Below, piece by piece: positions 8,760-51,563 of a DNA stretch of 64,000 bases. Source of the stretch: an uncultured virus (IMG/VR IMGVR_UViG_3300032282_002939). Its lineage: Duplodnaviria > Heunggongvirae > Uroviricota > Caudoviricetes. Both the position numbers and the translations under genes were made by a program. Under the pieces are notes generated by a model. It did no database searches, was not told the origin of the DNA, and worked only from the letters and a program-made list of their open reading frames with translations. The stretch is from positions 1 through 64,000 of IMG/VR virus record IMGVR_UViG_3300032282_002939; one strand, written 5' to 3'. The first letter of the stretch is position 1; each line of letters starts with the position of its first letter.

Positions 8760-9029
8760 ATGCAATATAAACGTGATAATCTTTTGAAAGATTTGAGAGA
8801 AAACGTCATTGAAGTATTTTTCACAAAGGTAAATGGTGAAGAAAGGGCTATGATTTGCACTCTTAAACCAGAAATGTTACCGCCTTCTTACCTAGAAGAA
8901 AAAGAACAAGAGAAGAAATTCCATAAAGAAAACAATAATGTAATTGCTGCATGGGATATCCAAAATAGAGGCTGGCGCTCATTTAGAATCGACAGTGTGA
9001 GTTACGTTCAAGTTAAAAATTATGGATAG
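8760..9029 (+). CDS. SH3/WYL-like conserved phage protein
   Basis: V.FTKVNGEER.M.CTL and WD....GWRSFR.DSV. Confidence 0.8.
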   Translation: MQYKRDNLLKDLRENVIEVFFTKVNGEERAMICTLKPEMLPPSYLEEKEQEKKFHKENNNVIAAWDIQNRGWRSFRIDSVSYVQVKNYG

Positions 9030-9669: not shown

Positions 9670-9673
9670 AAAA

Positions 9674-10249: not shown

Positions 10250-10602
10250 TGTCATATTGGGGTTATCATCTAATGATGGATTGTGCTGATTGCGATCCAT
10301 TTGCTATTAAAGATTATGATACTGTTTATCGTTTTGCAAAAGAATTAGTTGAAGCAATTGATATGGTCGCATATGGCGAACCACAAATTGTTAATTTTGG
10401 GACAGGAGACAAGGCTGGCTTCACTTTAGTGCAACTAATTGAGACAAGTAATATCTGTGCTCATTTTGTTAATGAGACTAATGCAATTTATCTAGACGTA
10501 TTTTCTTGCAAGAACTTCTTTCCTGAAACAGTTGAAGCTCTTGTTCGTAAATACTTTAAATGTAAAACTACCAGTCCTATGGTTAGAGTGAGGCAGGCTT
10601 GA
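10249..10602 (+). CDS. Second SpeD-like pyruvoyl decarboxylase (divergent)
   Basis: WGYHLMMD, GFTLVQLIETSNI.AHF, YLDVFSCK. Confidence 0.85.
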   Translation: MSYWGYHLMMDCADCDPFAIKDYDTVYRFAKELVEAIDMVAYGEPQIVNFGTGDKAGFTLVQLIETSNICAHFVNETNAIYLDVFSCKNFFPETVEALVRKYFKCKTTSPMVRVRQA

Positions 10603-10997
10603 TAACAGGTTTTACATGTGGTGCATTTGATTTTTTACATCCTGGGCATTTATATATGCTCAAGGAATGTAAAAATCATTGTGACTATTTGATAGTTGGT
10701 TTACACACAAATCCTAATTTGGATAGAAAAGAAAAAAATGTACCATTACAATCATCATATGAAAGATATGTTCAATTAAGAGAATGTAAACATGTTGATG
10801 CTATCATACCATATGATTATGAGAGAGATTTAATCAATATTCTTGCAACAGAAGAGATTGATATACGTTTTGTTGGTGAAGAATATAAAGATTTGGATAT
10901 TACTGGTATTGATATATGTAGAGAAAGAAATATAGAAATTTTCTACAATAAAAGACTACACAATATGAGTTCTTCAGAATTAAGGAAAAGAATATGA
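10599..10997 (+). CDS. HIGH-type nucleotidyltransferase (TagD / HldE C-terminal domain-like)
   Basis: GFTCGAFDFLHPGH, LIVGL, ER, R..NMSSSELR. Confidence 0.88.
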   Translation: MITGFTCGAFDFLHPGHLYMLKECKNHCDYLIVGLHTNPNLDRKEKNVPLQSSYERYVQLRECKHVDAIIPYDYERDLINILATEEIDIRFVGEEYKDLDITGIDICRERNIEIFYNKRLHNMSSSELRKRI

Positions 10998-11578
10998 GTT
11001 TTACAGATTTATTTTTTGGTGAAGTGATTTCTATTGCAGAATATATTGATAAAAATGCAATTGAAGATATTGTTGAAAATTTGGTTGATATCAGAGACAA
11101 CAATGGTAGAATGTTTATTCTTGGTGTTGGTGGTTCGGCTGGCAACGCTTCTCATATGACAAATGATTTTAGAAAGCTCTGTAATCTTGAAACGTATTGT
11201 CCGACTGATAATGTCAGTGAATTAACAGCAAGAACAAACGATGAAGGGTTTGATACCATCTTTGAAGAATATCTCAAGATAAGCAAATTCAATGACAAAG
11301 ATTGTATTTTTATTCTTTCTGTTGGTGGTGGCAATGAAGAAAAAAATGTATCTGTGGGCTTGATTAAAGCTATAAAGTATGCTAAAGTACAAAAGGGAAA
11401 GGTGTTTGGTATTGTTGGGCGTAAAGATGGCTATACAGCACAAAATGCTGATGTAGCTATTGTTATTCTTCCAGTTGAAGGTTCAAGAGTTACTCCTCAT
11501 TCCGAAGCTTTTCAATCCATTGTTTGGCATTGTATTGTTTCCCACCCAGCATTTCAAATTAATAAGACCAAATGGTAA
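10994..11578 (+). CDS. gmhA: SIS-domain phosphoheptose isomerase (GmhA-like)
   Basis: LGVGGSAGNASH..NDF, TARTND.G, LSVGGG, HSE.FQ. Confidence 0.82.
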   Translation: MSFTDLFFGEVISIAEYIDKNAIEDIVENLVDIRDNNGRMFILGVGGSAGNASHMTNDFRKLCNLETYCPTDNVSELTARTNDEGFDTIFEEYLKISKFNDKDCIFILSVGGGNEEKNVSVGLIKAIKYAKVQKGKVFGIVGRKDGYTAQNADVAIVILPVEGSRVTPHSEAFQSIVWHCIVSHPAFQINKTKW

Positions 11579-12117
11579 AATCTATATTTTTTGATCGTGA
11601 CGGAGTGATAAATAATCTTGTGAAGTATGACAAGGAATTTGTTGCTCCTAAATATTTTGACGATTTTGTTCTTAAACAAAACTCAGAAGAAGCCTTCCAA
11701 TTAATGAAAGACAATGGATTTTTAACTTTTATAGTTACAAATCAACCAGATGTCGTTCACAATGGAATGGATATCAAAGAATTAATCAAAATAAAAAAAT
11801 TCTTATTTGAAACTCTTGTAGTTGATGATATATTCGAAGCAATGGTAAGAGGATCAAAATTCTACAAACCAAATAATGGAATGGTAGAATATTTTATTGA
11901 AAAATATAAAATAGACAGAAATCAATCCTATCTTATTGGTGATAGATGGAAAGATATAGTATGTGGAAATTCTAGTGGATTGACCACTGTATTCATAGGA
12001 AATGAATATACTTCACCAAATAATTATAGTGCAATTAAACCAGATTATTTTGCTAATGATATTTTGGCAGCATGTAAAAAAATATTGGAGATTAAAAATG
12101 ATTCAATTATTCGCTGA
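11572..12117 (+). CDS. gmhB: HAD-family heptose 1,7-bisphosphate phosphatase (GmhB-like)
   Basis: FFDRDGVIN, VTNQPD, KP..GM, IGDRWKD. Confidence 0.85.
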   Translation: MVKSIFFDRDGVINNLVKYDKEFVAPKYFDDFVLKQNSEEAFQLMKDNGFLTFIVTNQPDVVHNGMDIKELIKIKKFLFETLVVDDIFEAMVRGSKFYKPNNGMVEYFIEKYKIDRNQSYLIGDRWKDIVCGNSSGLTTVFIGNEYTSPNNYSAIKPDYFANDILAACKKILEIKNDSIIR

Positions 12118-12811
12118 TGGCGCTGATACAAATGGAATAATTAAAGCTTCTCAAAACGAGAAGATTACAGGATTTACTACAAACCCAACTTTAATGAGAC
12201 AGGCTGGTGTTACGGATTATACTAGTTTTGCCAAAAATATAATTTCATATCTATCAGAAAATAGACCACAGACTTGTCTAAGTCTTGAAGTGTTTGCCGA
12301 TGATTTTGATCAAATGTTTGAACAGGCTATCAAAATTGATTCTTGGGGCCAGGAAAAGAATTATGACGTTTATGTGAAAATTCCAGTAACAAATACAAAA
12401 GGAGAATCATCAGGCGCTCTAATTAAAAAATTAGTTGATAATAACATAAAAGTTAATGTAACTGCTGTATTTACAATTGAACAGACTATTGGCGTTTTAG
12501 TGAATTTAAATAAAGAAGTTAAATCAATTATCTCTATTTTCGCAGGAAGAATTGCTGATACAGGAATTGATCCATTGCCAGTAATGCGGAAAATTGTTCG
12601 AATTAATGGTGGTCTGTCTCAAATTCTCTGGGCTTCTCCAAGAGAAGTATTAAATTATGTTCATGCAGAACAATCATCTTGTGATATCATCACAATGACT
12701 CCTGATCTAATAAAAAAATTGGATAATTTTGGTAAAGATATGAATACTTTTTCTCTAGAAACTGTAAAAATGTTTTATGACGATGCAACAAAATCAGGAT
12801 ATTCTATCTAA
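12098..12811 (+). CDS. tal: Transaldolase
   Basis: LFADGAD, GFTTNPTLM, YVKIP (Schiff-base Lys), VNVTAVF, SIFAGRIADTG; GGAG RBS before the ATG at 12098. Confidence 0.92.
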   Translation: MIQLFADGADTNGIIKASQNEKITGFTTNPTLMRQAGVTDYTSFAKNIISYLSENRPQTCLSLEVFADDFDQMFEQAIKIDSWGQEKNYDVYVKIPVTNTKGESSGALIKKLVDNNIKVNVTAVFTIEQTIGVLVNLNKEVKSIISIFAGRIADTGIDPLPVMRKIVRINGGLSQILWASPREVLNYVHAEQSSCDIITMTPDLIKKLDNFGKDMNTFSLETVKMFYDDATKSGYSI

Positions 12812-13812
12812 TGTTCGAAGAAAATGAAATTTCAAAAAACGCTAATGGCGGAACTGAAATTGCTAAAAGAACTTTACAAGATTTAATTGATCCAGAATTA
12901 AAGAAGCATTTTCAAATCATATCTTCAAGAGTAAGAGAACTGGATGAATCAAAGATTAGAGTATTTTTCGCACACGATCTTCCTGAAGACCCAGAATCTA
13001 AACAATTTGCATCTGCTGATTTTAGAAATAAATTTCATAAATTTGTTTTCATTAGTAACTGGCAGTATCAGAGATACCAACTAATCCATGGATTTCCATA
13101 TGATGAAAAATCTATTGTACTAGAATCTGGAATAGAGCCAGCACCAGAAGATGTTTTTGATCAAAAAGACAAAGAAAAAATGAGACTGGTATATACTTCT
13201 ACTCCACAAAGAGGATTAGAACTATTAGTTCCAGTATTCGATTTTCTTTCAAACAAATATCCAGATATTCATTTGGATGTGTTCTCCAGCTTCAAAATTT
13301 ATGGATGGGACGAAGCTGATAAAAATTTCGAACCTCTATATGACAGAATTAGAAATCATCCAAAAATGACATATCATGGGTTTGTACCAAATAAAGAATT
13401 GAAAGATCATCTAAACAAGTGTCATATATTTGCATATCCTTGCATATGGACAGAAACTAGTTGTAGAGCAATGCTAGAAGCCATGTCTGCTGGATTGGTT
13501 TGTGTTCATCCAAATAATGGTGCTTTACCAGAAACTTCTGGTTCTTTGAACGTTATGTATCAAGGCAATCAAGATATGGATAAACATGCTAGTATTTTTT
13601 CTTCTCATTTAGAAGCAGCTATCAATTTTGTTAAAAACGATAATCATAATCCAATGATTAAATTTAATAAAATATTTGTTGATAATAGATATAGTCTGAA
13701 TTCGATTGCTTATAAATGGGAAGCAATGTTAAGAGATTTATTGAAATTACATCCAACATCAGAATCTAGAGCTTTACCGAAACATCCAACATTTGTGTAT
13801 AGAACATCATGA
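12811..13812 (+). CDS. GT-B fold (GT4-like) glycosyltransferase
   Basis: GGTE, YTSTPQRGL, FAYPC.W.ETSC...LEAM.AG, GALPET. Confidence 0.88.
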   Translation: MFEENEISKNANGGTEIAKRTLQDLIDPELKKHFQIISSRVRELDESKIRVFFAHDLPEDPESKQFASADFRNKFHKFVFISNWQYQRYQLIHGFPYDEKSIVLESGIEPAPEDVFDQKDKEKMRLVYTSTPQRGLELLVPVFDFLSNKYPDIHLDVFSSFKIYGWDEADKNFEPLYDRIRNHPKMTYHGFVPNKELKDHLNKCHIFAYPCIWTETSCRAMLEAMSAGLVCVHPNNGALPETSGSLNVMYQGNQDMDKHASIFSSHLEAAINFVKNDNHNPMIKFNKIFVDNRYSLNSIAYKWEAMLRDLLKLHPTSESRALPKHPTFVYRTS

Positions 13813-14795
13813 TAATTTCTAAAACTCCATTACGTATAAGTTTTTTCTCTGGTGGTAGTGATATGCCTTCTTTCTATCAAAAGGAAGAAGGCGCTGCCTT
13901 TTCTGCTACAATAGACAAATATATCTATGTCATGGTTCATAAAACTCCTCATCTTGGCATAAAAGTGATGTATGATTCTATTGAAGAAGTTCCTGACGTA
14001 GAACAAATGCAACATCTTATCACAAAAGAGAGTTTGAAATATTTTAATTATAATAAAGAATTGACAGTAGCTTCTATTTCAGATATTCTTTCAAAGGGTT
14101 CTGGTTTGGGTTCTTCTTCTGCATTTACTGTTGGGTTGATAAATGCCCTTTCTAATTATAAATGGAATATGGCTACACCAAAATTCTTAGCTGATATTGC
14201 TTGTCAGATAGAAATGGACAAATGTGGTTATCCTGTTGGAAAACAGGATCAATATGCAGCCGCATTTGGAGGGTTTAATTTATTTAAATTTATGACCAAT
14301 GGAGAAGTACAAAATAATCGCTTAGAATTAGATCATGGTATTATATCTAAATTAGAAGAAAGAATATTGTTGGTTTATAGTGGGAAAGGAAGATCAGCCA
14401 ATCAAATACTACAAAAACAACAACAAGCCATGGAAGATAAGACTAAATTCAATTTAGTTAAAAGAGGCAGAGATAAAGCATATCTAGCTTACAAATATCT
14501 CCAATATGGTGATTTAGACAGTTTTGGAAATCTTTTACACGAATCTTGGATGGACAAGAAAAATGTAGTAAAAGAAATAACACAAGATTATTTTGATATG
14601 ATTTATAAAAAAGCCTTGACTTCGGGCGCAATAGGAGGTAAACTATTAGGGGCTGGTGGCGGAGGCTTTTTCATATTCTATGTACCTGTAGAAAAAAAGC
14701 AAGAAGTTATTCAATCTATAACTGCTGGAACAGAGTGTAAGGTGTACGACTTCAAATTTATAAATAGAGGCAGTCATATAACAACTGTTGATTAA
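13809..14795 (+). CDS. hddA: GHMP kinase, heptose-7-phosphate kinase HddA-like
   Basis: TPLRISFFSGGSD, GSGLGSSSA, GKQDQYAAAFGG, GGKLLGAGGGGF. Confidence 0.88.
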   Translation: MIISKTPLRISFFSGGSDMPSFYQKEEGAAFSATIDKYIYVMVHKTPHLGIKVMYDSIEEVPDVEQMQHLITKESLKYFNYNKELTVASISDILSKGSGLGSSSAFTVGLINALSNYKWNMATPKFLADIACQIEMDKCGYPVGKQDQYAAAFGGFNLFKFMTNGEVQNNRLELDHGIISKLEERILLVYSGKGRSANQILQKQQQAMEDKTKFNLVKRGRDKAYLAYKYLQYGDLDSFGNLLHESWMDKKNVVKEITQDYFDMIYKKALTSGAIGGKLLGAGGGGFFIFYVPVEKKQEVIQSITAGTECKVYDFKFINRGSHITTVD

Positions 14796-22590: not shown

Positions 22591-22983
22591 TTATTTCTTT
22601 TTACGACCCATATTATATTTGGTTTCTAGAATCCACTCAATTTTTTCTTTATGGTTAAGAATTTTAATTTGATTCATTGATGCCAGAGGAGAACTAATTT
22701 CTTCCGAATTGACAACTGTCAATAAACCCCATTCTTTTAACAATTCAACAATTTTGTTTCGCCTTGCTTTATCTTCTTCGGTAAAATTAGAAGGTTTACC
22801 ATCAATAGCAAACATTTCTTTAAAATGAACAATATAATATTTCCCTTGTTTATGGAAAATATGGCATGATTGGAATAATCTTTTCTCTTTTCTTGAAGCA
22901 ACACCAATTCTAGTTAATGTTTCTTTAATTTTTAAGAAATCTTCCTCCTCTGCAATCTTCACTTCGATTAAATTTTCTATCAT
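22591..22983 (-). CDS. regA: RegA translational repressor
   Basis: DFLKIKETLTRIGVAS, QSCHI.HKQGKYYIVHFKE; position after gene 62. Confidence 0.95.
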   Translation of the reverse strand: MIENLIEVKIAEEEDFLKIKETLTRIGVASRKEKRLFQSCHIFHKQGKYYIVHFKEMFAIDGKPSNFTEEDKARRNKIVELLKEWGLLTVVNSEEISSPLASMNQIKILNHKEKIEWILETKYNMGRKKK

Positions 22984-23465
22984 TTAACCCCACCTTTTTC
23001 TTGTTTTTTTCTAATAAACTCAATCTGTTCCTTTGTAAGAATTTTTAGAACTTCTTTGCTTCTCACAATATTGTATTTATAATATTCTGAAATTAGTTCT
23101 ATTAATTTTTCTTCTTCTTTACGCCGGTCCAGTTCTTCCTGGGGTGTCTTTTTACTGAAGCGTTTATGTTTACGAACAGAATAAAAAAGATAATCGTATT
23201 GCATCTGGAACGGAAGATGATACATCATATTAACAATATTAGCATCAAATACCGTTTCTGGGTAATTAGATAGGATATTATTTGTTCTCCAAGGATTATA
23301 TTTCTCATCTTGATCGGAAAGGATCAAACGCTCCTTTCCGGTATTGATGCTGTTTTCGTACCTCCAATCATATCTTTTATCTGTTGTTTGTTTCTTTTCT
23401 ACAGAAGGCTCTTCTCGATCTTCAAGAAGAACATTAACAAATTTCTTTTTTACAGGAACTCGCAT
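22980..23465 (-). CDS. 62: Clamp loader small subunit gp62
   Basis: MQYDYL..SVRK.KRF, YYKYN...KE.LKILT.EQ; synteny. Confidence 0.85.
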   Translation of the reverse strand: MRVPVKKKFVNVLLEDREEPSVEKKQTTDKRYDWRYENSINTGKERLILSDQDEKYNPWRTNNILSNYPETVFDANIVNMMYHLPFQMQYDYLFYSVRKHKRFSKKTPQEELDRRKEEEKLIELISEYYKYNIVRSKEVLKILTKEQIEFIRKKQEKGGVK

Positions 23466-24388
23466 TCTTGCATTACCTTCAGGAGAAAAGCTACAAAATT
23501 AATCTCTTGATTGGCCACAAACGCATTTTGATATTGATATGTAGCAACCTCAAGAATCAAAACGGGAACGCTTGATTTTGCAAAATAGTCATATGCAGTT
23601 TCGTAGAACTCTGTATATAGATCAGAAACATCTGAATCCATATTGTTCTTGACCCATTTACGAACTTCTGTTAGATTTTTATCCTTCATGAATTGAATCA
23701 ATTCCTTAAGATTAGTTTCTCGCATATTAGCAAGAATACCAGAATCGATCTTACCGGTGGCTGAATATCTCTGAAGCTCATTGATAACACGGCGCCAATC
23801 TGGAAAATATTTATTGATTAGTTCCGCTACTACAGGCTTTTCATATTGGACGTTTTCTTTGTCGAGAATATAGAGAATTCTCTTCATAAATTGGGAAGCT
23901 AACTTCGCCATGTCCTTTTTTGAAATATTAAAATCAATAACAGAACACCTAGAATGTAGGGGCGAGATTAGCTTATTCTTATAATTACAAGTCAGAATAA
24001 ACCCACAATTCCGAGAAAACTCCTCCATAAAATTGCGAAGAGCAGGTTGTGTTGAGTTTGGATTAAGGTAATCCGCCTCGTCAAGAATTACATATTTACG
24101 ACCACCAGAAAGGGAAACGCTCGAGGCGAAAGTTTGAATTTCATTCCTAAGCGTATCAATGTTTCTATCTTTTGAACCGTTGATGATGATATAATCACAA
24201 CCAATTTGTTCTAACATAGCACGAGCAACTGTGGTTTTACCCACACCTGCAGAGCCAGTCAAAAGGAGATTTGGAATATTTTTCTGATCGACAAATTGTT
24301 GAAACACAACTTTCAAATTTGTAGGAAGAATAGTATCTTCAATAGTTTTTGGCCTATAAACTTCAACCCAAAGAAAATCTTCAATCAT
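23450..24388 (-). CDS. 44: Clamp loader large subunit gp44
   Basis: LWVE.YRP, GSAGVGKTT, ILDEAD, LHSRC. Confidence 0.95.
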   Translation of the reverse strand: MIEDFLWVEVYRPKTIEDTILPTNLKVVFQQFVDQKNIPNLLLTGSAGVGKTTVARAMLEQIGCDYIIINGSKDRNIDTLRNEIQTFASSVSLSGGRKYVILDEADYLNPNSTQPALRNFMEEFSRNCGFILTCNYKNKLISPLHSRCSVIDFNISKKDMAKLASQFMKRILYILDKENVQYEKPVVAELINKYFPDWRRVINELQRYSATGKIDSGILANMRETNLKELIQFMKDKNLTEVRKWVKNNMDSDVSDLYTEFYETAYDYFAKSSVPVLILEVATYQYQNAFVANQEINFVAFLLKVMQECEFL

Positions 24389-24404
24389 TTTATATCTCCA
24401 TAAC

Positions 24405-24431
24405 GAAAAGAAATGGGGGAATTACCCCCAC
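24405..24431 (-). terminator. Intrinsic terminator-like hairpin after gene 45
   Basis: TGGGGG-TAATT-CCCCCA followed by TTTCTTTT. Confidence 0.6.
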
Positions 24432-24434
24432 ATA

Positions 24435-25088
24435 TTAAAATTCAGAGTTGCTTTCTACTGCAATCCAGTATTCAGCTTCCTTTCCAACAAAATGTGAAAT
24501 TCCCCTAGAACAAATAGATACCTGATAATCACCAGGAAGAATTTTAATATTGTCAGATTTAAAAATCGCTTTGAAAATTTTGTCAGTTTCTCCAATATCG
24601 ATTGAAAAATAATCTTCTGTAGTATTTTTAGTATCTGCTGCTTGTAGAGCAATAACATTTTCAGCTCCAAGAATAACCAGTTCTGGCAAACCAAGAACTC
24701 CAAGAGCTTTTTCAACATCCTTTAGATGATCGTTTGATAGAAAAAACGAGGCATCAATTGATGGGAGAACTAGATCTTTTTCTGGAGACTTTTTAATTGT
24801 GCTTTCGTCAGCATAAGCATAATTTGTTGTCCTTTTTCCATCTGTAATCTTAACAGATTTTTCCCCAAAAATTAGCTCTGGATCGGAAAAAAGACTTAGG
24901 ATTGAAATGAACCGATCTAAATTATAGATAGCAAAACGATTAGGAAATGCAGTGCTAACTACTGCCTTTGCCATGATTGTTTTTGCTGGAGAAATAGTTT
25001 TAATCACATTTCCTTCTTCAATCAAGATAGAAGGATTAATTTTCGCGAAATTCTTTAGAACATTGATAGTGTTTGTGTCGATTTTCAT
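24435..25088 (-). CDS. 45: Sliding clamp gp45
   Basis: LKNFAKINPSI, FAIYNL..F, KILPGDY.V, YWIA.E. Confidence 0.93.
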   Translation of the reverse strand: MKIDTNTINVLKNFAKINPSILIEEGNVIKTISPAKTIMAKAVVSTAFPNRFAIYNLDRFISILSLFSDPELIFGEKSVKITDGKRTTNYAYADESTIKKSPEKDLVLPSIDASFFLSNDHLKDVEKALGVLGLPELVILGAENVIALQAADTKNTTEDYFSIDIGETDKIFKAIFKSDNIKILPGDYQVSICSRGISHFVGKEAEYWIAVESNSEF

Positions 25089-25103
25089 AATATATCTCCT
25101 AGT

Positions 25104-25955
25104 TTATTTTCTTTTACCACCAAGTTGAGAAGGATCGGCTGTGGCGGAAACGCCGATAGAAGCCAAGTCTGCCAGAGAACCACCAAAGATATAGCTACCA
25201 ACGTGATTCATTTTCATCCAAGGACATAGCCAAGTACGTAGTCCAATTTCTTGTGCTTTTTGACAGAACCAATAATCTTCTGATAGATAACGCTTTGATA
25301 CTGGATCAACTTCTGCCTGAAAGAACATCATAATTTCACGCGAACCATCAAAATGTTCTGTGCGAACGTGATCTGGTTTGTACATATACTGTTGATATGA
25401 ATCAAAGAATTTCTGCATAGCGTTCTTTGTTACCATCATGAATCCAGTACCAATTTCAAGAACTTCACAAGGATCGCTGATGGCGATTTGAGATTGACCT
25501 GATTTGGGATTAAAAACATAATCACCAACAAAACGCTCAAGAACATTTGGGTCTTGGTCTGCAATACCCTTATCTACAGCAACTTTAATTTTTTCCCATG
25601 AAATACATTTTTTAGGATATGGACCACCAATAATATCATATTTCTCTGGTTCCATAGTTTGTAGAGCCATTAGTGCAATGACATCTTGTGCATTGAATCC
25701 AATGTCAGAATCGATAAACATTAGATGTGTTGCATCAGAACGCATAAACTCATCACAACAATAATTTCGAGCACGAGTAATCAGTGATTCATTAAAGAGA
25801 AAATAGAATTGTAGTGGAATACCATATTGAGCACATGTGGCTGATAGATCAGAAATAGACCTAGCAAACATACCAGCACATTGACCACCATACATTGGGG
25901 TCGCCACAAACAATTTACCTTTTCTTAGTTCTTCTACAGATACATTAATTTCCAT
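25104..25955 (-). CDS. GT-A fold glycosyltransferase-like protein
   Basis: FVATPMYGG, NESLITRARN, FIDSDI (DxD), GTGFM, YLSEDYWFC, H.G. Confidence 0.75.
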   Translation of the reverse strand: MEINVSVEELRKGKLFVATPMYGGQCAGMFARSISDLSATCAQYGIPLQFYFLFNESLITRARNYCCDEFMRSDATHLMFIDSDIGFNAQDVIALMALQTMEPEKYDIIGGPYPKKCISWEKIKVAVDKGIADQDPNVLERFVGDYVFNPKSGQSQIAISDPCEVLEIGTGFMMVTKNAMQKFFDSYQQYMYKPDHVRTEHFDGSREIMMFFQAEVDPVSKRYLSEDYWFCQKAQEIGLRTWLCPWMKMNHVGSYIFGGSLADLASIGVSATADPSQLGGKRK

Positions 25956-25999
25956 CTTTTAATCATCCTTTGTAATTGTGTATAAGTCAAGCTTTTTAT

Positions 26000-26533
26000 T
26001 TATCCAATCATAGAACAAATTTTGTTGAAAACTACTTCTTGATCGGAAAAATTATTATTGTCAAATTTGTCTACACTAAACATCAAAACGAAATTTGATA
26101 AAATATTAGATATTTTGCTTTCTCGGCCAGCTAGCCAAGTTTCGTTTTGTTCGCTGCCTCGTTCTTTGTATCGCTCTTGGCGAACTGGTTTATCTGTTCG
26201 TAGATAGATAATCTGCAATTCGTATTTATCCAAACAGTCTTCCAGAAAAGAAGCTGTGAATAATCTATCTCCCTCGTAAAGAACAATAGAATCTTTTGGT
26301 AAAGTCTCAAGGAATTTAATAGCTTCTGGTTGCACAGCCATACTCATGCGATCTGTTCCTTGGGCGTATCCACCTTCTTCATATTTACCTAATACGTAAA
26401 TATTGTTATGCTGTAGATAAGGCACCAGTTTTACTGATTCATATTTGGGTAACATATTATATTTTTCAATAATTTTCTTCATAAGAGTGGTTTTACCACA
26501 CCCTGGTTCTCCACCAATTGCAATTACAAGCAT
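26000..26533 (-). CDS. P-loop nucleotide kinase-like protein associated with base modification
   Basis: GGEPGCGKTT, LGKY, GTDRMSMAVQ, EGDRL, RGS.Q. Confidence 0.82.
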   Translation of the reverse strand: MLVIAIGGEPGCGKTTLMKKIIEKYNMLPKYESVKLVPYLQHNNIYVLGKYEEGGYAQGTDRMSMAVQPEAIKFLETLPKDSIVLYEGDRLFTASFLEDCLDKYELQIIYLRTDKPVRQERYKERGSEQNETWLAGRESKISNILSNFVLMFSVDKFDNNNFSDQEVVFNKICSMIG

Positions 26534-26534
26534 T

Positions 26535-27521
26535 TCAATTCTCCAAATATGCCAATAAATCATTATTGAAGTCGTTTTTTTGGAACAACCCTGTAGCGTC
26601 TAGTATATTTTTGTTGAGGTATAGAGACATTTTACTATTGTTTATGCTATTAGTCAACAACTTTTTTTCTAAACTTTCGTTTCTAAAATCCCAAAGAGGT
26701 TGCCAATCAATTCCATCCCAATTATCTTTTTCACAGGCTTTAATTTCTTCGGCTTGTCTATCTAGATAATATCCCAAATACCTTCCATGAGATACTCTAA
26801 AAAGCTTCTTGAAACTACAAAGAACTGTTTCCATATCAAAGTAATCAGTATTAGGATACTCTTTCTTGACCTCTTCAAGAATATAATAAGCCTGACCGTC
26901 TAGGTATTCTATTTCTTTATTGTTTAATTTTTTATCATACCATTCATCAAGACCAAGAGCCATGACAAGACCGTTACGATGTGAACGACTGCCTTCGTGA
27001 TCATCTAACATCAAATGAGATGGTTCTATGGGCAAGTTACAACATTGTTTTAATGTTTGTAAATAAAACCAAGTTGAATAACGACCAAATTTGTGAAATT
27101 TGTTTTTTACTTCTTGCCAAAGTAAATCAAAATTCTCTTTTACTGATCCTTGGAGGAATTCCGCAAAAGCTTCTGATTGAGAACTATCACCAACCCATTG
27201 TTTGTAACTTTCGAACTGCTTTGGAAGATGACCTTTGTTCCATTTGGTGTCAGTTTGATAACGGAGCCGTTTGTAATTGTTATTGTTCCATTCGCGGAGT
27301 CTTTCGATTCCGACGAGTTCCATATCTGGGAATTCATTCCATATCACCCATGTAGTTGGAAAATAATATGTTGTTCCATAAATCCAAGCAATCCATAATT
27401 TTTGCTCGATATTGTGTTCAAATCTTTCAAAAAGATAATTTGTCATATGTATAGCTGGATCGCAGTCCCTTATTTCAAGGGACCACTTATACCAATTTAT
27501 AAAATCTTTTTTACGATTCAT
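26535..27521 (-). CDS. aGPT-pyrophosphorylase clade 2 / amino acid:DNA transferase-like protein (HhH-glycosylase fold)
   Basis: DCDP, KFGRYSTWFYLQ, ETVLCSFKK, RYLGYYLDRQ. Confidence 0.8.
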   Translation of the reverse strand: MNRKKDFINWYKWSLEIRDCDPAIHMTNYLFERFEHNIEQKLWIAWIYGTTYYFPTTWVIWNEFPDMELVGIERLREWNNNNYKRLRYQTDTKWNKGHLPKQFESYKQWVGDSSQSEAFAEFLQGSVKENFDLLWQEVKNKFHKFGRYSTWFYLQTLKQCCNLPIEPSHLMLDDHEGSRSHRNGLVMALGLDEWYDKKLNNKEIEYLDGQAYYILEEVKKEYPNTDYFDMETVLCSFKKLFRVSHGRYLGYYLDRQAEEIKACEKDNWDGIDWQPLWDFRNESLEKKLLTNSINNSKMSLYLNKNILDATGLFQKNDFNNDLLAYLEN

Positions 27522-27966
27522 AAAAATTTCTTAAATCGTTTGTCTTTAAGTCAATAAGAAAACGAATATTTTTATTTAAATCTCTATCCGCCAAAAACAA
27601 ATCTTTATCTTTTGGTTGTGGTTCTGTATTTTCCATCCAGGAATCAGCCGTTTCTATTAAAGATTGCGGTAGTTGAGAAAAACTATACATCTTTGCACCA
27701 CCACCATTGCTTTGATTATACCAAGCGTCATTAGTAACAGCATTATTTTTCGAAAGAATATAGTGTTCTAGAGTCATACAATCATCAACAGCGCCTCGAT
27801 GAATTACTGTTTTACGCAGAAGTCCATGAGACCATGCATGGCGCAAAGGATAATTGTCAGAGGAGAAAACATAACCATCATTTTCTTCATTGGTTTTATG
27901 ATAACCAACATAGCGCATTCCGTTTTCAACATTGATATATCCATAAACAATAGCTTCGTATTTCAC
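27511..27966 (-). CDS. GIY-YIG-like protein, possibly truncated
   Basis: AIVY...RYVGYHK..DGYVFSS, E, WYNQSNG. Confidence 0.6.
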   Translation of the reverse strand: MKYEAIVYGYINVENGMRYVGYHKTNEENDGYVFSSDNYPLRHAWSHGLLRKTVIHRGAVDDCMTLEHYILSKNNAVTNDAWYNQSNGGGAKMYSFSQLPQSLIETADSWMENTEPQPKDKDLFLADRDLNKNIRFLIDLKTNDLRNFYES

Positions 27967-28010
27967 AATTTTATCCCTTTTACACGAAAAATTCAGAACA
28001 TATTATAACA

Positions 28011-28547
28011 TTATTCAGAGTAAAAATCAACACCTTTATACTCCACAAAACACTCTATACATCCACCCTTTCCTTTTCTATTCATCTGTTTCCATATATA
28101 AGAATCTATTTCCATATTATTCATTTTTATGTGTGAATTTGTCAATTTAAACATAGACAATTGTGCTGTTTTTTGCCGACAAACAAATTTGAAACCGTAT
28201 TTTTCATAAAATCCTACCGCGTCTAATTCTGCAGAAACGCGAAAGTAATCAGACTGCATTTCGTGTGCAAAAGCTAATCCCCAATCGCATAAGATACTAG
28301 CCACACCATTACCTCTAAATTCATGAAATGTATGGAGTAATTGTAGATTTGCAACCTTTGGGTTTCTCTTTGAAATAGTAACAACTATAGCGCCAGCTAA
28401 TTTGTCATCAATGATGACACCTCTGCAACCCTCCCAACCATTTAGCATATCACATTTAGCCACAAAAGTTTTAGCAAAACGATCTTCTTTTTTATCTGTT
28501 AATGCTGAAACAAATTCTTGCCTATCAATTTTTCTCATATACTTCAT
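28011..28547 (-). CDS. GNAT N-acetyltransferase
   Basis: FRGNGVAS acetyl-CoA loop and AVGFYEKYGF. Confidence 0.85.
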   Translation of the reverse strand: MKYMRKIDRQEFVSALTDKKEDRFAKTFVAKCDMLNGWEGCRGVIIDDKLAGAIVVTISKRNPKVANLQLLHTFHEFRGNGVASILCDWGLAFAHEMQSDYFRVSAELDAVGFYEKYGFKFVCRQKTAQLSMFKLTNSHIKMNNMEIDSYIWKQMNRKGKGGCIECFVEYKGVDFYSE

Positions 28548-29409
28548 AAAATTCTCGTTGTTTCTTGCCTCTTGATTTGTCGTATTTTGTCTTTTCCCAT
28601 CCAATATACATATCGTGATCGTATTCAAACTTAGGAAATTGGAATTTATCTTCTAATAATATTTCATCAACATTAGGTCCATCGTTCAAAGCCGCAGATA
28701 TAAATTTCTCAACAAATTTAAAAGAATCAGCAATTTCCTGTTCATTGACCGAAGAACGAAAACAACGAAATTCAATAGTTCCTGTGTGCTTCATACAATA
28801 AGTATTAATAGCGTATCGAAATGGTCTTCCCATAGAAACACCATCTTTACCTGCTGCATGCAGCCTAATAAAGTCGTCAAAATTATTGGCTAGTTTAGTT
28901 ATATTATCACACATATAATCTGGCATTGGTCTACCACCATCCCATTTTAAATATGTTTTGGCTGTTTTTGAGCTATTCATCAAAGGAGATAGACGAAATT
29001 GATAACATTTTTCAATAGTAATATGTTGATTTTCTTTAATGTATCTGATTAGTTTCTTTAGAGATTCTATATCTTCTTTTAATCCAGGAACAAAAACGTG
29101 TAAATGTCCGTGATTAACACAACTAGCTGTCGGTTCTTGTTTTAAATCACGAAACAGAGAAATGATTTCATTAATACGATCAACTTGCTCTTTCCAAGTC
29201 TTGGTTGGTTTTGTGTTAATTTCTCCACCGACGGGTGGAGAAATACCTAGAGGATCACAAGCCAAACCTCTATATGGATCTGTTAGATTAACAATATCAG
29301 TTTCCGCATATTCCCATTTACCTAAATGATCTGGAATAACAACATCTCTGCCTATATCTCCAAACTCTAATTCATAACCCCATGTAAATTTAGAAGAGTC
29401 ATATTTCAT
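28525..29409 (-). CDS. Amidoligase (COOH-NH2 ligase family)
   Basis: TWGYELEFGD, GGEINTKP, HGHLHV, RYAIN, GTIEFRCF. Confidence 0.82.
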   Translation of the reverse strand: MKYDSSKFTWGYELEFGDIGRDVVIPDHLGKWEYAETDIVNLTDPYRGLACDPLGISPPVGGEINTKPTKTWKEQVDRINEIISLFRDLKQEPTASCVNHGHLHVFVPGLKEDIESLKKLIRYIKENQHITIEKCYQFRLSPLMNSSKTAKTYLKWDGGRPMPDYMCDNITKLANNFDDFIRLHAAGKDGVSMGRPFRYAINTYCMKHTGTIEFRCFRSSVNEQEIADSFKFVEKFISAALNDGPNVDEILLEDKFQFPKFEYDHDMYIGWEKTKYDKSRGKKQREFYEVYEKN

Positions 29410-30083
29410 TGTAAATCCTCTGCATTAGAACTGAAAAGTTTATCGGTTATATTAAAATCTATAATAGTGTATTCTCTGTACATTTCTGTAGGAACTGAAA
29501 AACTCAACCCAGACCTTTTTGCTATATCAGAAGTAGACGTAAAAACAAACCCGTTCGCACCATAGGAATAATATAAAGGTCTTGCTTCGTTTCGAAAAGC
29601 AGTAAATTTCTTTTGATGATCAATAGTGCAAACAGCCATACTAGAGGGTCTAAATTTTTCTAAAGGATGTTCATTGTTTTCTAATGCTCTCAATATCAAT
29701 TCACTGTCATTAGAAGTAATTGTTTTATACCCATATAATTCTTCCCATAGATCTTTACTTTCTTGAGAAATCACACCATTGTGGGCAATAGCTAATTTTT
29801 CGGTAGAAATTGGTTGATTGTATCTAAGGTCGCTAGTAGAATACCTTATGTGACCAATACAATACAAATTACCATCTTCATTTTTCCAAGAAAGTATATC
29901 TTGTTTTGATATAAATTCGTTCGCCGGGACAGGTTCTTTTATTGTATTTACAATATTATTTTTAACATACGAAACACCAGTAGCGTGTTTACCTCTTATC
30001 ATAGATTGTAGAAAAAGATCGCGAATCAATCCACAATCTTTTTCTTTAAAATCTTTAATCAATATTCCTAGAACACCACACAT
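29406..30083 (-). CDS. Class II (Ntn) glutamine amidotransferase
   Basis: N-terminal MCG, RG.HATG, GHIRYST, NQP, AHNGVI, NDSE. Confidence 0.9.
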   Translation of the reverse strand: MCGVLGILIKDFKEKDCGLIRDLFLQSMIRGKHATGVSYVKNNIVNTIKEPVPANEFISKQDILSWKNEDGNLYCIGHIRYSTSDLRYNQPISTEKLAIAHNGVISQESKDLWEELYGYKTITSNDSELILRALENNEHPLEKFRPSSMAVCTIDHQKKFTAFRNEARPLYYSYGANGFVFTSTSDIAKRSGLSFSVPTEMYREYTIIDFNITDKLFSSNAEDLQ

Positions 30084-31411
30084 TAAAAGAAAGTTTCTAA
30101 ACTAGAAGTTTTTTCTATTTCCCCAAAAACGTCCACTAGACCATCTTCGTCTATGTGATTGTGTTTACGAAGAAAGTCTCTCCACTCTTCGATTTTAAAA
30201 CAGCCCGGCGACACTCCATTCCAAAGCGGACGATAGTACTTATGATCTTTGTTGGCTCGGCGTTCTTCGATGTATTGCTTACGAAGCTGCTCATAATCCC
30301 AAGATTTTAGATCCATCATTTTCTCTCTAAAATAAGCGACAATTGTCATACGATCATTATTTTCGCCGATCAATGCATCATTGCCATGGATACCACCGTG
30401 ATTATTTACCAGCAACATATCACCTGGTTGTAGATTGATAGCAATTTTAAATTCAGGAAGAATGAATTGACCGCCTTGCCAGCCTTTTCCTTCTGGTCCG
30501 GTAACTCCACAAATATTAGAAAACCCTTCATGAAGATCTCCTGCGTCTCTATGGCAAGCAGTTCTCCAATTATGATTTACAGTCAATGTTGTGAACACAG
30601 TATCATCAATACGAAACCGAGGATCAAGCTTTTGTGCGCAATTGTTTTGTGAAGCCCATCTAACGGGAAGAAGCTCTTTAAATTGTTGATTTAATTTACG
30701 CAGATAAGGAAAACATTTCTGAAATAAATCATAATGTTTTTCTGTGTAAGAAGTTGCACGACCATAAGGAATTCGTGGGTAACGATCAAAATATCCTGCA
30801 ATACCAGACATAACTGATTGAGCGTAATTTGTGTCAGAAACATAATATTTCAGAACATGTTCTGCTTCTTTTCTTTGTTCTTCTCTGGAATAGTTATGGA
30901 TGGAGTCCACCCACTTATCAAACCATCCATGATATTCTGGATATCGTTTAGTTACTTCTGAACGAAGCCAAACTTGACCACGAGTCTCTTCTTTTTTTAG
31001 GCACGATTGATGGTAACGTCTAATCGACTCAATAGTTTCGTCTTGGATAATGATATTATCTGGTCTAATCAAATAATCTAGAACGTCTAGATGATATCCA
31101 GTCACCCAATCTCTACCGCCGCGTCCAGCAGAACCGAGAAACTCACCACGGGGACCGGCAGCAAGACCTCTGTTTTGAGATTCTGTTGCCGCTCCGATAA
31201 GACCTTCATAAGCAAGATCGCATTCCTCTTTTGTAAAGATATTTTTGCGATATTTAAAAATAATATTTGCTTCTGAAATATCACCATCAAGAGATTCAGC
31301 GTACAGATCACAGTCCTCTTCAAGAATAGTATCTGTATACTCAGCACAAGTAATAAATTTTCCCAGGACATGTTCACAATCTGCTTTTTTTCTAACTAGA
31401 ACTTTAACCAT
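30083..31411 (-). CDS. TET/JBP-family 2OG-Fe(II) dioxygenase
   Basis: SGIAGYFDRYPR, FTTLTVNHNWRTACHRDAGD (HxD), HGN, RMTIVAYFRE. Confidence 0.85.
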   Translation of the reverse strand: MVKVLVRKKADCEHVLGKFITCAEYTDTILEEDCDLYAESLDGDISEANIIFKYRKNIFTKEECDLAYEGLIGAATESQNRGLAAGPRGEFLGSAGRGGRDWVTGYHLDVLDYLIRPDNIIIQDETIESIRRYHQSCLKKEETRGQVWLRSEVTKRYPEYHGWFDKWVDSIHNYSREEQRKEAEHVLKYYVSDTNYAQSVMSGIAGYFDRYPRIPYGRATSYTEKHYDLFQKCFPYLRKLNQQFKELLPVRWASQNNCAQKLDPRFRIDDTVFTTLTVNHNWRTACHRDAGDLHEGFSNICGVTGPEGKGWQGGQFILPEFKIAINLQPGDMLLVNNHGGIHGNDALIGENNDRMTIVAYFREKMMDLKSWDYEQLRKQYIEERRANKDHKYYRPLWNGVSPGCFKIEEWRDFLRKHNHIDEDGLVDVFGEIEKTSSLETFF

Positions 31412-31438
31412 ATCAATCTCCTATCTCGATAATATACT

Positions 31439-31467
31439 AGTATATAGTAAGAATACTGTTGTGTCAA
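31439..31467 (-). promoter_or_regulatory. Near-consensus sigma70-type promoter upstream of the modification operon
   Basis: TTGACA-17 nt-TATACT; AGGAG RBS downstream. Confidence 0.78.
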
Positions 31468-31847
31468 GTCCTACTTTTTAGAATACCTGCAATGTCGGGA
31501 GGAGTCCATCCTTCTGGTTTTAGAACTTTACCATCAGCGCGACGAATAACCTTACCATCAACAAGTTTTGCCATATTAGAACGATGTACTTCGTCAAATA
31601 CTTTATCTAAAGGAATACCGTAAGCAACAGCTGTTCCACATGCGATATAAATTACATCAGCAAGAGCATCAGCAATTCCAACAATATCTGCCTTTTCTTC
31701 CGCTTCTAGATACTCATTAAATTCTTCTTGAAGAAGATCAATTCTTAAATCCCTAATAGAGACATCTTCTGGCACTTCAGGATTTGATCCTATTGTTAGG
31801 TCAAAAGCTTTGTGAAATTCAAAAACATCTTTGTACATATTGCTCAT
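31464..31847 (-). CDS. MazG-like all-alpha NTP pyrophosphohydrolase
   Basis: LLQEEFNE, DALADVIY, EVHRSNMAK, DGKVLKP. Confidence 0.88.
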   Translation of the reverse strand: MSNMYKDVFEFHKAFDLTIGSNPEVPEDVSIRDLRIDLLQEEFNEYLEAEEKADIVGIADALADVIYIACGTAVAYGIPLDKVFDEVHRSNMAKLVDGKVIRRADGKVLKPEGWTPPDIAGILKSRT

Positions 31848-31848
31848 G

Positions 31849-32385
31849 TTAAATTATCCATTCTGGGGGGTTGCGGTTTTTCCAGGAATGCATTCTAGCC
31901 TTTCCTAGTTTGTAATAGTTTCTATAATTAACGATTGGGTCGTTGCTTATAATATATTGTTTATCCATGGCAGATGGTGGAGTAGTCCAATCCCATTTTT
32001 CTAAGTTTTTAGGAGGGGATTGAAGCATATAACTCAATTCTCCAAAACAAGAATGTTGTTTGCTATAACGAAAAGTATATTCGCTCATCAAAGCAAAGAA
32101 ATGATCAACAAGCCAATTGTAATTTTCAATTGACTCTCTACACCAAACAGCAGAAGGATGATTGGTGTGCGTCGCTGAATATAAAACATTTTCTCGTGAA
32201 TCGCTGAGAACCCAGCGGCGAGCTTTTCTACCAGAAAGAGTTTTCCCTTCAATTTCTTTGCCATCAAGAAATCGATGCGCTGTGGACAACAGTTGGGCGG
32301 ATTCTAGAACCATTTTCACAACATGACGATCAACGAGACAACGGGCTGCAGTCTGCGCGCATCGGTCAACATAGAAAATATTAAT
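31849..32385 (-). CDS. Pyrimidine-dimer DNA glycosylase/DenV-related protein; inferred ATT start
   Basis: (I)NIFYVD...DRHVVKMVLESAQLLSTAH, H.NHPSAVW, YRNYY; GGAG RBS before ATT. Confidence 0.82.
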   Translation of the reverse strand: MNIFYVDRCAQTAARCLVDRHVVKMVLESAQLLSTAHRFLDGKEIEGKTLSGRKARRWVLSDSRENVLYSATHTNHPSAVWCRESIENYNWLVDHFFALMSEYTFRYSKQHSCFGELSYMLQSPPKNLEKWDWTTPPSAMDKQYIISNDPIVNYRNYYKLGKARMHSWKNRNPPEWII

Positions 32386-32386
32386 G

Positions 32387-33094
32387 TTAGCTCTCCTTCA
32401 AAGAACAGTTATCAAAATGATAACGTCTCATAGCAAATGCACCTCCATTTTTACCACAGTGTGGGCATGCTGTCAATTCTTGTTTATAACCTTTTTCTCT
32501 TACTGGAGAGAAAGCTTCGTTAAACGCTTTGACTTGTCTGATAAGTCCTTCAGGTGAGATTGACTGTCTAGATCTTTTACCATGTTCTTTAAGTTCATCG
32601 GCATTCATCTTTGAAAATCTTGCTTTTTGAGCTTTACTTTTTAATTGTCTGGAATGTTCACTTTCTTTGCTGCCTTTCTTATTTTTATTGGCAGATGATG
32701 TCAGTGCTTTCTTTTGTTCCTTTGTCATCTTTGATCTCTGAAGCTTTAAGCTCTCTGACATTTTAAGAAGTGTTTCTTCAGAATACTCACGATCTACACA
32801 ACCTTCACCGCCAGCAGTCATGTTATATCCATAACCGTAATCATTTGATCTATAATGTTTTATCCATTTTTGTTCAGCTTCATATATTTTACCACTTTCA
32901 CATTCTTCTAACATTTCGATTTTAAAGTTCTCAGAACCGTATTTCTTCATAGCTTGATATAACAGTCGTCTTTCTTTATTGAGACTTTTGCTACATCTAA
33001 CATGATCTTCAAACCTAGATTCGATTGAATGTTTTGTTATTCCAACGTACTTTTTATTATTAACTTCATTTTTGATTAGATATACGTATGACAT
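32387..33094 (-). mobile_element. Free-standing GIY-YIG (Seg-like) homing endonuclease
   Basis: YVYLIKN..KYVGIT..RF..H, GYNMTAGGEG, C-terminal CPHC...RYHFDNC. Confidence 0.88.
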
Positions 33095-33150
33095 ATGTTA
33101 CTCCTTACTTGACCACATGCTTATTTATCTTTACAGAGTGTTCAAGATAT

Positions 33151-33627
33151 TCATCGCTTCCACTTTTTAAAAGCCTGTTGACGATGATAAGGATTCGCTC
33201 TGCGGAAAAACAATTCTCCATTAAGATGATCTAATTCGTGTTGAAAAATTCTCGCTGTCATTCCAACAAATTGTTTTGTCATTACATCTCCATTAGGAGT
33301 ATTGAATCTTACTCTGATCTGTTGTGGACGCTTTATTTTAACGTACAGATTTGGAAAAGTCAAACATCCTTCTTCAAGGAGAATTTGTTGTTCAGAAAAA
33401 TGAACAATTCTAGGATTTATACAAACAAAATTTTCTGGCTGACCTCTCATAGCAAAAATACGATATGGAACACCAACCTGATTGGCGGCAATACCTATAC
33501 CATTGTTATCATACATAAATTTAACAAGGTCTTTTGAAAATTCAATTAAATCAAAAGGTGGATTAAGAAAATCCACTTCTTGACAAGGAGTTTTTAAAAT
33601 AGAGTCTTTGTCAGATACTAATTCCAT
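33151..33627 (-). CDS. def: Peptide deformylase
   Basis: GIGIAANQVG, EGCLT, QHELDHL. Confidence 0.95.
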   Translation of the reverse strand: MELVSDKDSILKTPCQEVDFLNPPFDLIEFSKDLVKFMYDNNGIGIAANQVGVPYRIFAMRGQPENFVCINPRIVHFSEQQILLEEGCLTFPNLYVKIKRPQQIRVRFNTPNGDVMTKQFVGMTARIFQHELDHLNGELFFRRANPYHRQQAFKKWKR

Positions 33628-51559: not shown

Positions 51560-51563
51560 TTTA

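Follow-up and report, generated by a model that had tools for sequence, protein, structure and literature searches.

Which modified base, and by which route, would be made in the DNA of a T4-like phage that encodes a TET/JBP-type oxidase together with a glutamine amidotransferase, an amidoligase, and an acyltransferase? The question is raised by eight minus-strand open reading frames (ORFs) at positions 25104-31411 of a stretch of DNA from an uncultured virus of the Caudoviricetes (IMG/VR record IMGVR_UViG_3300032282_002939). This stretch, hereafter the window, comprises positions 1 to 64,000 of a viral record of 73.9 kb, estimated to be 44% complete. Its source is a T4-like myovirus: it encodes gp23, gp20, gp18, terminase, UvsW/UvsY, gp46/47, and RegA, and also the sliding clamp and its loader. 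The eight ORFs lie head to tail between the genes for MazG and gp45, abutting or overlapping except for two 44-nt gaps; the ORF listing and the family matches confirmed what the original prediction had read from the sequence, i.e., eight co-oriented genes upstream of gp45-44-62.

Six of the ORFs most likely represent a thymidine-hypermodification set: a TET dioxygenase, a stand-alone glutamine amidotransferase (GATase), an amidoligase, a GNAT acyltransferase, an amino acid:DNA transferase (AADT), and a P-loop kinase. The other two are a remnant of a larger gene and a GT-A-like glycosyltransferase candidate. The locus as a whole is probably a cassette for post-replicative hypermodification of thymidine in a T4-like phage, with tailoring that starts from ammonia and with two deletions. 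A more specific proposal is put forward only tentatively: an undescribed thymine derivative would arise from a glutaminase-fed AADT, acylation by the ligase, and a cap added by GNAT, the enzymes riding on the clamp by their tails and dispensing with a ParB-like helper.

Predicted Enzymes and the Proposed Pathway

Pfam matches above the curated cut-off were obtained for five of the eight ORFs (TET, GATase, GNAT, AADT, and kinase). The TET protein (30083-31411, 442 aa), an Fe(II)/2-oxoglutarate dioxygenase of the TET/JBP type (5mYOX), matched PF12851 (Tet_JBP) over residues 206-363 with 67.1 bits against a cut-off of 34.9, leaving 79 residues C-terminal of the Pfam domain, and phrog_24024 with E = 6.8e-135. 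The residues H287, R288, D289, H338/H342, and R354 do not vary across 27 aligned sequences; H287, D289, and H338/H342 would form the HxD...H iron triad, and R354 would be the 2-oxoglutarate-binding Arg. The GATase (29406-30083, 225 aa), of class II (Ntn) and starting with Met-Cys, gave 46.4 bits with PF13522 (GATase_6; cut-off 27) and also matched PF13537. Invariant in 23 sequences are its M1-C2, R80, N102-G103, and D126, of which C2, R80, N102-G103, and D126 presumably correspond to the glutaminase-site residues of PurF.

The GNAT protein matched PF13673 (35 bits, cut-off 23.6), PF00583 (30.5, 20.7), and PF13508 (28.6, 27). Its mechanically called ORF, 28011-28628, begins at a TTG at 28628; judging by the N-termini of relatives, the likely start is an ATG at 28547 or 28538, i.e., a protein of ~175-178 aa encoded at 28011-28547. 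The kinase (26000-26563, 187 aa), a predicted 5-hydroxymethyldeoxyuridine (5-hmdU) DNA kinase, matched PF18751 (Ploopntkinase3) with 37.5 bits against 27, as well as PF13238, and carries the Walker A motif GEPGCGKT. Its ORF overlaps the AADT stop, and its probable start is Met11 at position 26533; in related loci, the kinase always follows the AADT or a gene close to it. The AADT itself (26535-27521, 328 aa; formerly aGPT-Pplase2) scored 90.9 bits with PF18724 (ADDT; cut-off 26.2), and neither E231 nor C235 varies among 25 sequences, divergent classes included; a conserved Cys and a nearby Glu are reported as essential in the AADTs M6 gp51 and ViI gp247 (PMC8989533). The intact catalytic motifs noted in the original prediction are thus borne out for TET, GATase, and AADT by residues invariant among relatives, and TET, kinase, and AADT are present and look catalytically intact.

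The amidoligase (28525-29409, 294 aa) is identified by fold, by Atlas clusters, and by its relatives. Its AlphaFold2 (AF2) model has a mean confidence score (pLDDT) of 90.8, and all 26 rows listed for it by Foldseek (ranks 1-50) are YbdK, GshF, glutamine synthetase (GS), GmaS, or gamma-glutamylcysteine synthetase. The modelled fold is accordingly that of the glutamine synthetase/gamma-glutamylcysteine ligase (GS/GCS) group of ATP-dependent carboxylate-amine ligases, and the matches include gamma-glutamylmethylamide synthetase, an enzyme that acylates a methylamine. Comparison with the Atlas clusters of PF12224 gave scores of 0.96-0.98, and a weak PF12224 match was seen in 18/25 relatives (best E = 3.3e-4). 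Profile searches of the PDB with the amidoligase and GT-A-like alignments returned no match, and single-sequence PDB searches with TET, AADT, GATase, amidoligase, and the GT-A-like protein gave nothing usable.

Read against the published biochemistry of these families, the assignments outline a three-step core. TET would oxidise thymine in finished DNA to 5-hydroxymethyluracil (5hmU), the kinase would phosphorylate the new hydroxyl, and AADT would replace the phosphate with a nitrogen nucleophile via an exocyclic methylene intermediate. According to the available text of the sources, phage 5mYOXs of clades C1/C2 are T-dioxygenases acting on finished DNA, those of clade C1 being linked with GATases, P-loop kinases, and AADTs (PMC13229309); P-loop kinases phosphorylate 5-hmdU, and clade-2 AADTs displace the phosphate via a Cys-dependent exocyclic methylene intermediate (PMC8989533). 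The TET-kinase-AADT succession of the original prediction fits both this biochemistry and the metavirome clusters described there (PMC8989533, PMC13229309). The remaining steps are suggested by gene co-occurrence: the nucleophile would be glutamine-derived ammonia supplied by the stand-alone GATase, yielding 5-aminomethyl-deoxyuridine (5-aminomethyl-dU); the GS/GCS-fold amidoligase would join a carboxylate, probably of an amino acid, to this DNA amine, and GNAT would cap the amine that remains. The cassette would be transcribed together with the replication genes.

Either T or 5-methylcytosine (5mC) had been considered as the base oxidised. Neither a C5-methyltransferase (PF00145) nor a hydroxymethylase of the thymidylate-synthase (ThyA) type (PF00303) was found on the 73.9-kb record, a fragment at 44% completeness. 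Since, in addition, the downstream enzymes act on 5hmU, T is the likelier substrate and 5mC the less likely one, and TET is predicted to be a thymine-to-5hmU oxidase of finished DNA.

Related Loci and the Source of Nitrogen

The cluster type is widespread: confirmed relatives in viral contigs number at least 134 for TET and at least 155 for AADT, of which the best 80 of each were retrieved. The census built on them comprises 52 distinct intervals from TET to the GT-A-like gene, each distinct TET protein being represented once; it includes the window's identical twin but neither the window nor the three GenBank loci. GATase sets stand behind TET in 28/52 intervals, and a TET-associated glycosyltransferase (TAGT, PF20691) directly behind it in 12/52. 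Divergent AADTs with other genes (N6/N4 methylase, inositol-1-phosphate synthase) account for 7/52 and an unexplained 1.4-kb gene pair for 5/52.

All 28 GATase cassettes have a kinase and an AADT of the window's class (73-84% identical), and none of the seven cassettes with a divergent AADT (21-33% identical) has a GATase. The amidoligase is less constant: 23 of the 28 encode the window's class, three a class that is ~30% identical, with another gene between it and the GATase, and two have none, their order being TET-GAT-GNAT-AADT-kinase. Because the GATase tracks the AADT class in 28/28 cassettes and twice does so without an amidoligase, ammonia is favoured as the nucleophile. In other words, the co-occurrence favours a GATase that acts with AADT and not after it, which shifts part of the tailoring that had been placed after the substitution; the later steps by amidoligase and GNAT are retained. 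The neighbourhood conservation by which the original prediction could be judged was found for GATase, AADT, and kinase, together in 28/28; the GT-A-like gene, constant under every cassette type, is not specific to the cassette. Acetylated aminomethyl-dU is known from phage PaMx11 (PMC8989533, PMC13458397), and, by analogy, the relatives with the TET-GAT-GNAT-AADT-kinase order could make the same base by another route.

On a maximum-likelihood tree of the 52 TETs (quick search), the seven cassette labels require 23 changes, the minimum being 6, as compared with a mean of 30.4 after label shuffling (0/200 shuffles as low as 23). Near-identical TETs precede different cassettes, e.g., in the locus pairs L077/L140 and L046/L101. 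Together, these two results point to a vertically inherited TET with interchangeable cassettes, so that, by sequence comparison, the slot behind TET is a swap site. The window TET groups with TAGT-type loci on the same quick tree (SH-aLRT 95).

Other contents of the slot were also recorded. Divergent-AADT cassettes with a myo-inositol-1-phosphate synthase occur at L077:3401-4531, L015, and L083, and the cultured Caulobacter phage Cr30 (KF301602, 54208-55389) has an inositol-1-phosphate synthase gene a few kb from its TET, divergent AADT, and kinase; such cassettes might conceivably yield a thymine adduct derived from inositol. No paper on Cr30 DNA modification was among the matches listed. Stenotrophomonas phage DLP6, for which an 18-enzyme RFLP panel is reported (PMC5349666), encodes TET and the GT-A-like protein, but a 19-kb stretch of it gave no match to AADT or the kinase. 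The unexplained pair, present in five TET loci (L063:1766-3186, L047, L049, L062, and L064), encodes a protein of ~325 aa with no Pfam match and one of 147 aa with an N-terminal HAD-like DxDG motif and no Pfam match at E<=0.01. Pfam scans of the unexplained genes in other cassette types mostly gave no match.

The ParB-like Remnant and the Two Deletions

The original prediction had assigned seven functions to eight genes, leaving one ORF unnamed: 27511-27966, 151 aa, between GNAT and AADT. It matches phrog_314, a homing endonuclease family (E = 8.6e-10), and was at first taken for a free-standing homing endonuclease; this reading was dropped because the full-length relatives turned out to have a ParB-like body. 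In the relatives, the gene at the same position encodes 425-500 aa, with a GIY-YIG-like N-terminus (HNH-like in a second class) and a body bearing a DGNH(T/R) motif; examples of such fusion genes are L085:812-2092, L033:13393-14670, and L155:8517-10001. In a PDB search, a profile of 18 of these proteins picked out Noc, a member of the ParB family (E = 7e-4). The AF2 model of the 426-aa L085 protein (pLDDT 86.7) had as its best matches B. subtilis ParB, Noc, M. xanthus ParB, and C. crescentus ParB, and the HNH-like class aligns with the first over the ParB-like region (hhalign probability 84.7%).

The window ORF shares 70% identity with residues 1-137 of the L085 protein, and ~880 bp of L085 are absent from the window between 27563 and 27515. 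By this alignment, the ORF is the N-terminal remnant, with its GIY-YIG-like domain, of a nuclease-like/ParB-like protein whose ParB-like part has been deleted; the unnamed ORF is, then, a truncated gene. The second deletion was seen with blastn against L085: ~370 bp corresponding to a DUF3310 gene are absent between the kinase and the GT-A-like gene (junction at 25970-26025). DUF3310 is present in 51/52 intervals, the exception being the window's twin. No displaced copy of the ParB-like part or of DUF3310 was found elsewhere in the window, and PF02195 is absent from the 73.9-kb record, where only the N-terminal nuclease-like domain of the ParB-like gene remains.

In the available text of O'Toole (2026), the 5mYOX subclass linked with GATase, kinase, and AADT needs ParB on double-stranded DNA; on their own, the ParB-dependent enzymes have minimal activity, and neither ParB domain can be dispensed with (PMC13229309). 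Marks of this subclass are a cognate ParB homologue (NBD + CTD) encoded next to the dioxygenase and an extended C-terminus of the dioxygenase. The nearest structures named there for the ParB activators of phage T-dioxygenases are M. xanthus and C. crescentus ParB, and the activators are said to have no obvious DNA-binding domain (PMC13229309). The latter statement raises the thought that the nuclease-like N-terminal domain might supply DNA binding to the ParB-like proteins. A ParB-like gene occurs in 18/28 GATase cassettes, and an unlabelled 483-aa ORF takes its place in one more.

Alternative Explanations

Several points weigh against the ammonia-first cassette as set out above. The PF12224 (Amidoligase_2) match of the amidoligase, 18.3 bits over residues 202-236, is under the curated cut-off of 22, so that this part of the original identification is not carried by Pfam, and the Foldseek E-values are weak (best 1.3e-3). 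Logan contigs of run X1, produced by another assembly pipeline, span both deletion junctions with 0 differences, but this run may be the window's own source sample, and runs X2 and X3 hold just small shares of the stretch. Given that the published subclass is ParB-dependent and the ParB-like part is deleted here, the cassette could be impaired; then again, as the record is 44% complete, the partners absent here (ParB, methyltransferase, hydroxymethylase) may lie elsewhere in the genome. Finally, a class-II glutamine amidotransferase (GAT-II) gene adjoins an amidoligase gene in phage tf (tf_21 amidoligase, then tf_22 GAT) and in Vibrio phage 1.262.O (GAT, then a COOH-NH2 ligase), and in neither case does the annotation of the 10-13-kb neighbourhood include TET, AADT, or such a kinase; hence, GATase and amidoligase may be an imported pair working together, and not a GATase serving AADT.

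These neighbours also lend weight to a different order of tailoring, the main alternative, to be taken seriously even though we regard it as somewhat unlikely. According to this alternative, AADT adds a free amino acid (such as glycine or glutamate) by its alpha-amine, the amidoligase activates the carboxylate with ATP, ammonia from the GATase converts it into a carboxamide, following the logic of a split asparagine/glutamine synthetase, and GNAT acetylates the secondary amine. Such an order accords with the characterised AADTs named in the available parts of PMC8989533 and PMC13458397, all of which use an amino acid or a polyamine and not ammonia, with the presence of an amidoligase in 26/28 GATase cassettes, and with the ammonia-using glutamine synthetase among the fold relatives of the amidoligase. 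It is harder to reconcile with the two of 28 cassettes, each represented by several loci, which lack either amidoligase class and still retain GATase, AADT, and kinase: the presence of the GATase follows the AADT class perfectly, and not the amidoligase, which in the three cassettes of the ~30%-identical class is moreover set apart from the GATase by the intervening gene.

Decay of the locus is improbable. It would mean that TET-initiated modification was disabled when the ParB-like activator domain and DUF3310 disappeared and that the rest is being lost; consistent with this are the two deletions that set the window apart from L085, its closest relative, the rarity of the arrangement (1/52 intervals), the minimal activity of ParB-dependent 5mYOXs alone (PMC13229309), and the long terminal branch of the window TET (0.39 against a median of 0.083). 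The seven other ORFs are intact, however, with invariant catalytic residues, and the deletion is clean, the AADT start being retained. A ParB-like gene is likewise absent from the interval in 9/28 GATase cassettes (the window arrangement included) and in 12/12 TAGT cassettes, and the TETs of ParB-less cassettes interleave with ParB-associated ones on the tree. The best identities to relatives are similar for TET (77%), gp44 (77%), and gp45 (71%), so the long branch is better read as a mark of a distinct lineage.

Least likely is a separate module in which only TET, kinase, and AADT act on DNA and GATase, amidoligase, and GNAT make a metabolite or modify a protein, as Iyer et al. reportedly proposed in 2009 for the amidoligase/GAT-II/ATP-grasp systems of LUZ24-like phages: both families do occur together in phage tf beside ATP-grasp and AIG2/GGCT-like genes with no hypermodification genes annotated. 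In the present lineage, however, all three genes are confined to the interval from TET to the kinase, where they sit between TET and AADT and each stop overlaps the next start. They have no ATP-grasp or GGCT-like gene in their company, and the tails of GNAT and AADT resemble that of the polymerase.

The GT-A-like Gene

The last gene of the row (25104-25955, 283 aa, phrog_1574) had been counted as a member of the pathway, perhaps glycosylating the product. Its protein has no Pfam match at E<=0.01; among its relatives, weak matches to Anp1 (26/26), GT21 (18/26), and GT2 (7/26) all fall under the cut-off. With D82 and D84 invariant and GT2-like structural neighbours of its Atlas model, a GT-A character is plausible. 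Membership in the pathway is not supported: the gene stands beside gp45 in 52/52 intervals, under every cassette type, and coexists with a dedicated TAGT. Outside these loci, it separates gp46 from gp45 in Sinorhizobium phage phiM12, whose annotated 11-kb neighbourhood has no cassette, and is beside gp45 in Ochrobactrum phage OC; both phages are absent from the TET search, which returned just 9 records. The protein ends in lysines and lacks the C-terminal tail common to the DNA-acting enzymes. Being constant under every cassette type and present in phiM12, it is placed outside the pathway, as a core gene of the phage group. The gene list is corrected accordingly, with the GT-A-like gene taken out of the pathway and the eighth ORF entered as a remnant.

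C-Terminal Tails and the Upstream Region

Several of the enzymes share a short C-terminal motif. The TET tail has the consensus ssLdfFF over 82 ORFs (SSLETFF in the window), with F442 invariant in 27 sequences; TAGT tails follow tll.FF, with TL[E/D]xFF in most copies, and AADT tails gl.efF, the window's own LLAYLEN being atypical. GATase ends in an invariant EDLQ, and the kinase has no conserved tail. In a related phage of 98% completeness, the polymerase gp43 has SNLEDFFND at its C-terminus (L160:472-2955), which the TET, AADT, and TAGT tails, and also that of GNAT, resemble. We liken the (S/T/G)L(E/D)xFF tails to the clamp-binding peptide of T4/RB69, which suggests docking of TET, AADT, and TAGT on the clamp and of GATase on an enzyme partner.

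A sigma-70-like promoter candidate, TTGACA-17-TATACT (31439-31467, minus strand), overlaps the MazG stop codon. The site named in the original prediction is real as a pattern: at 31467-31439, it agrees with 11/12 consensus positions and ties for the best within 24300-33200, where promoter-like sites as a class are not enriched (39 observed against 37.0 +/- 6.7 in shuffles). GGAGA and ATG are present downstream of it, and a comparable TTGAC[AT]-N16-18-TAnnnT was seen in 16/70 distinct related upstream regions. Overlapping the -10 hexamer, just upstream of TET, is the palindrome ATATACTAGTATAT (ATATAC-TA-GTATAT, 31432-31445), the sole perfect match in the 64-kb window. A TATATAC/GTATATA/CATATATA motif stands at most 70 nt from the TET start in 41/68 distinct relatives, as opposed to 0-3 of 34-60 for 11 other genes. 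A TA-rich palindrome, GTATATATAC-like in the relatives (loci L005-L155), is situated 20-45 nt upstream of the TET start and might serve as an operator or as a promoter element particular to the phage.

Other Features of the Window

Upstream of the cassette lies MazG (31464-31847), and directly downstream gp45 (24435-25088), followed by gp44 (23450-24388) and the clamp-loader A subunit (22980-23465). At a distance from the cassette, the plus strand encodes two S-adenosylmethionine decarboxylase-like proteins (5841-6224 and 10249-10602) and a sugar-metabolism block (9022-14795) with TylF O-methyltransferase, cytidylyltransferase, SIS, transaldolase, GT1, and GHMP kinase. The large terminase gene (49767-52510) appears split by a GIY-YIG gene (50906-51559); in its downstream part, 49767-50948, intein splicing is matched only weakly (31.3 bits, the cut-off being 35.8). 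Further genes resembling GIY-YIG-type homing endonucleases are located at 2016-3179, 3596-3994, 32387-33094 (two genes upstream of the cassette), and 55090-55833.

Comparison with Known Systems

Hypermodified thymines shield phage DNA from restriction enzymes, and the pathways leading to them are a source of enzymes for DNA chemistry. Should the tentative proposal made at the outset be true, the locus would represent a new route to 5-aminomethyl-dU and a GS-fold ligase acting on DNA, and the window, having lost the ParB-like partner by a natural deletion, would demonstrate that this lineage of TET can do without the helper. As it stands, the analysis raises the points that ammonia from glutamine may be the nucleophile of AADT, that a GS-fold ligase may act on DNA, and that the ParB-like partner may be dispensable, with the window as a natural knockout. 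What the window adds to the published record is the natural ParB-like truncation, the loss of DUF3310, and evidence against a place for the GT-A-like gene in the pathway.

The gene combination, by contrast, is not novel: it is already published as a cluster type whose product is undefined in the available text of Lee et al. (2021) and O'Toole (2026). The metavirome clusters of the former (NAR, PMC8989533, sequences 22-25 of Fig. 2) share with the window a clade-2 AADT, a 5-hmdU kinase, and a TET_JBP protein that stands in for the dUMP hydroxymethylase, and they too carry unexplained amidoligase and glutamine amidotransferase domains in a modular, combinatorial organisation; no product or role is stated there for the GATase and amidoligase, and the window copy differs by its truncated ParB-like gene. 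The view that no chemically defined base is known for the combination still holds, none having been found in the literature outside the supplementary datasets of both papers, which may list these contigs.

The clade C1 neighbourhoods of O'Toole (2026, PNAS, PMC13229309) have in common with the present locus a 5mYOX, a GATase, a P-loop kinase, and an AADT, as well as a ParB homologue in the relatives, whose best structural matches are the proteins named in that paper. Unlike the activators in its available text, the relatives' ParB-like protein has a GIY-YIG- or HNH-like N-terminus and is encoded between GNAT and AADT, and in the window it is reduced to the N-terminal domain.

As for the TET + TAGT cassettes, which follow the logic of base J, twelve related loci have a TAGT behind an orthologous TET, in the same slot; the window has none, and its GT-A-like gene belongs to a different family, lacks the polymerase-like tail of TAGT, and is not linked to TET. 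In LUZ24-like and other phages (phage tf, tf_19-tf_25; Vibrio phage 1.262.O), an Amidoligase_2 or COOH-NH2 ligase gene adjoins a class-II amidotransferase gene in the early region, as here. The GAT proteins of phages tf and 1.262.O are longer, however (480-530 aa with a C-terminal extension), are encoded alongside ATP-grasp and AIG2-like genes, and are only 25-30% identical to the window GATase.

A chemical parallel is provided by PaMx11, in which, according to the available text, 5-hmdU is incorporated at replication and 5-acetylaminomethyl-dU is produced with the kinase gp49, the glycine:DNA transferase gp46, the FAD lyase gp47, and the acetyltransferase gp48, the amine arising via glycine and the FAD-dependent lyase (PMC8989533, PMC11472151). 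Both systems have a kinase, an AADT, and an acetyltransferase, and, if the present proposal is right, they would share the aminomethyl-dU intermediate. The window has no lyase: here, TET would give the hydroxyl, the GATase is the candidate source of nitrogen, and the amidoligase comes in addition.

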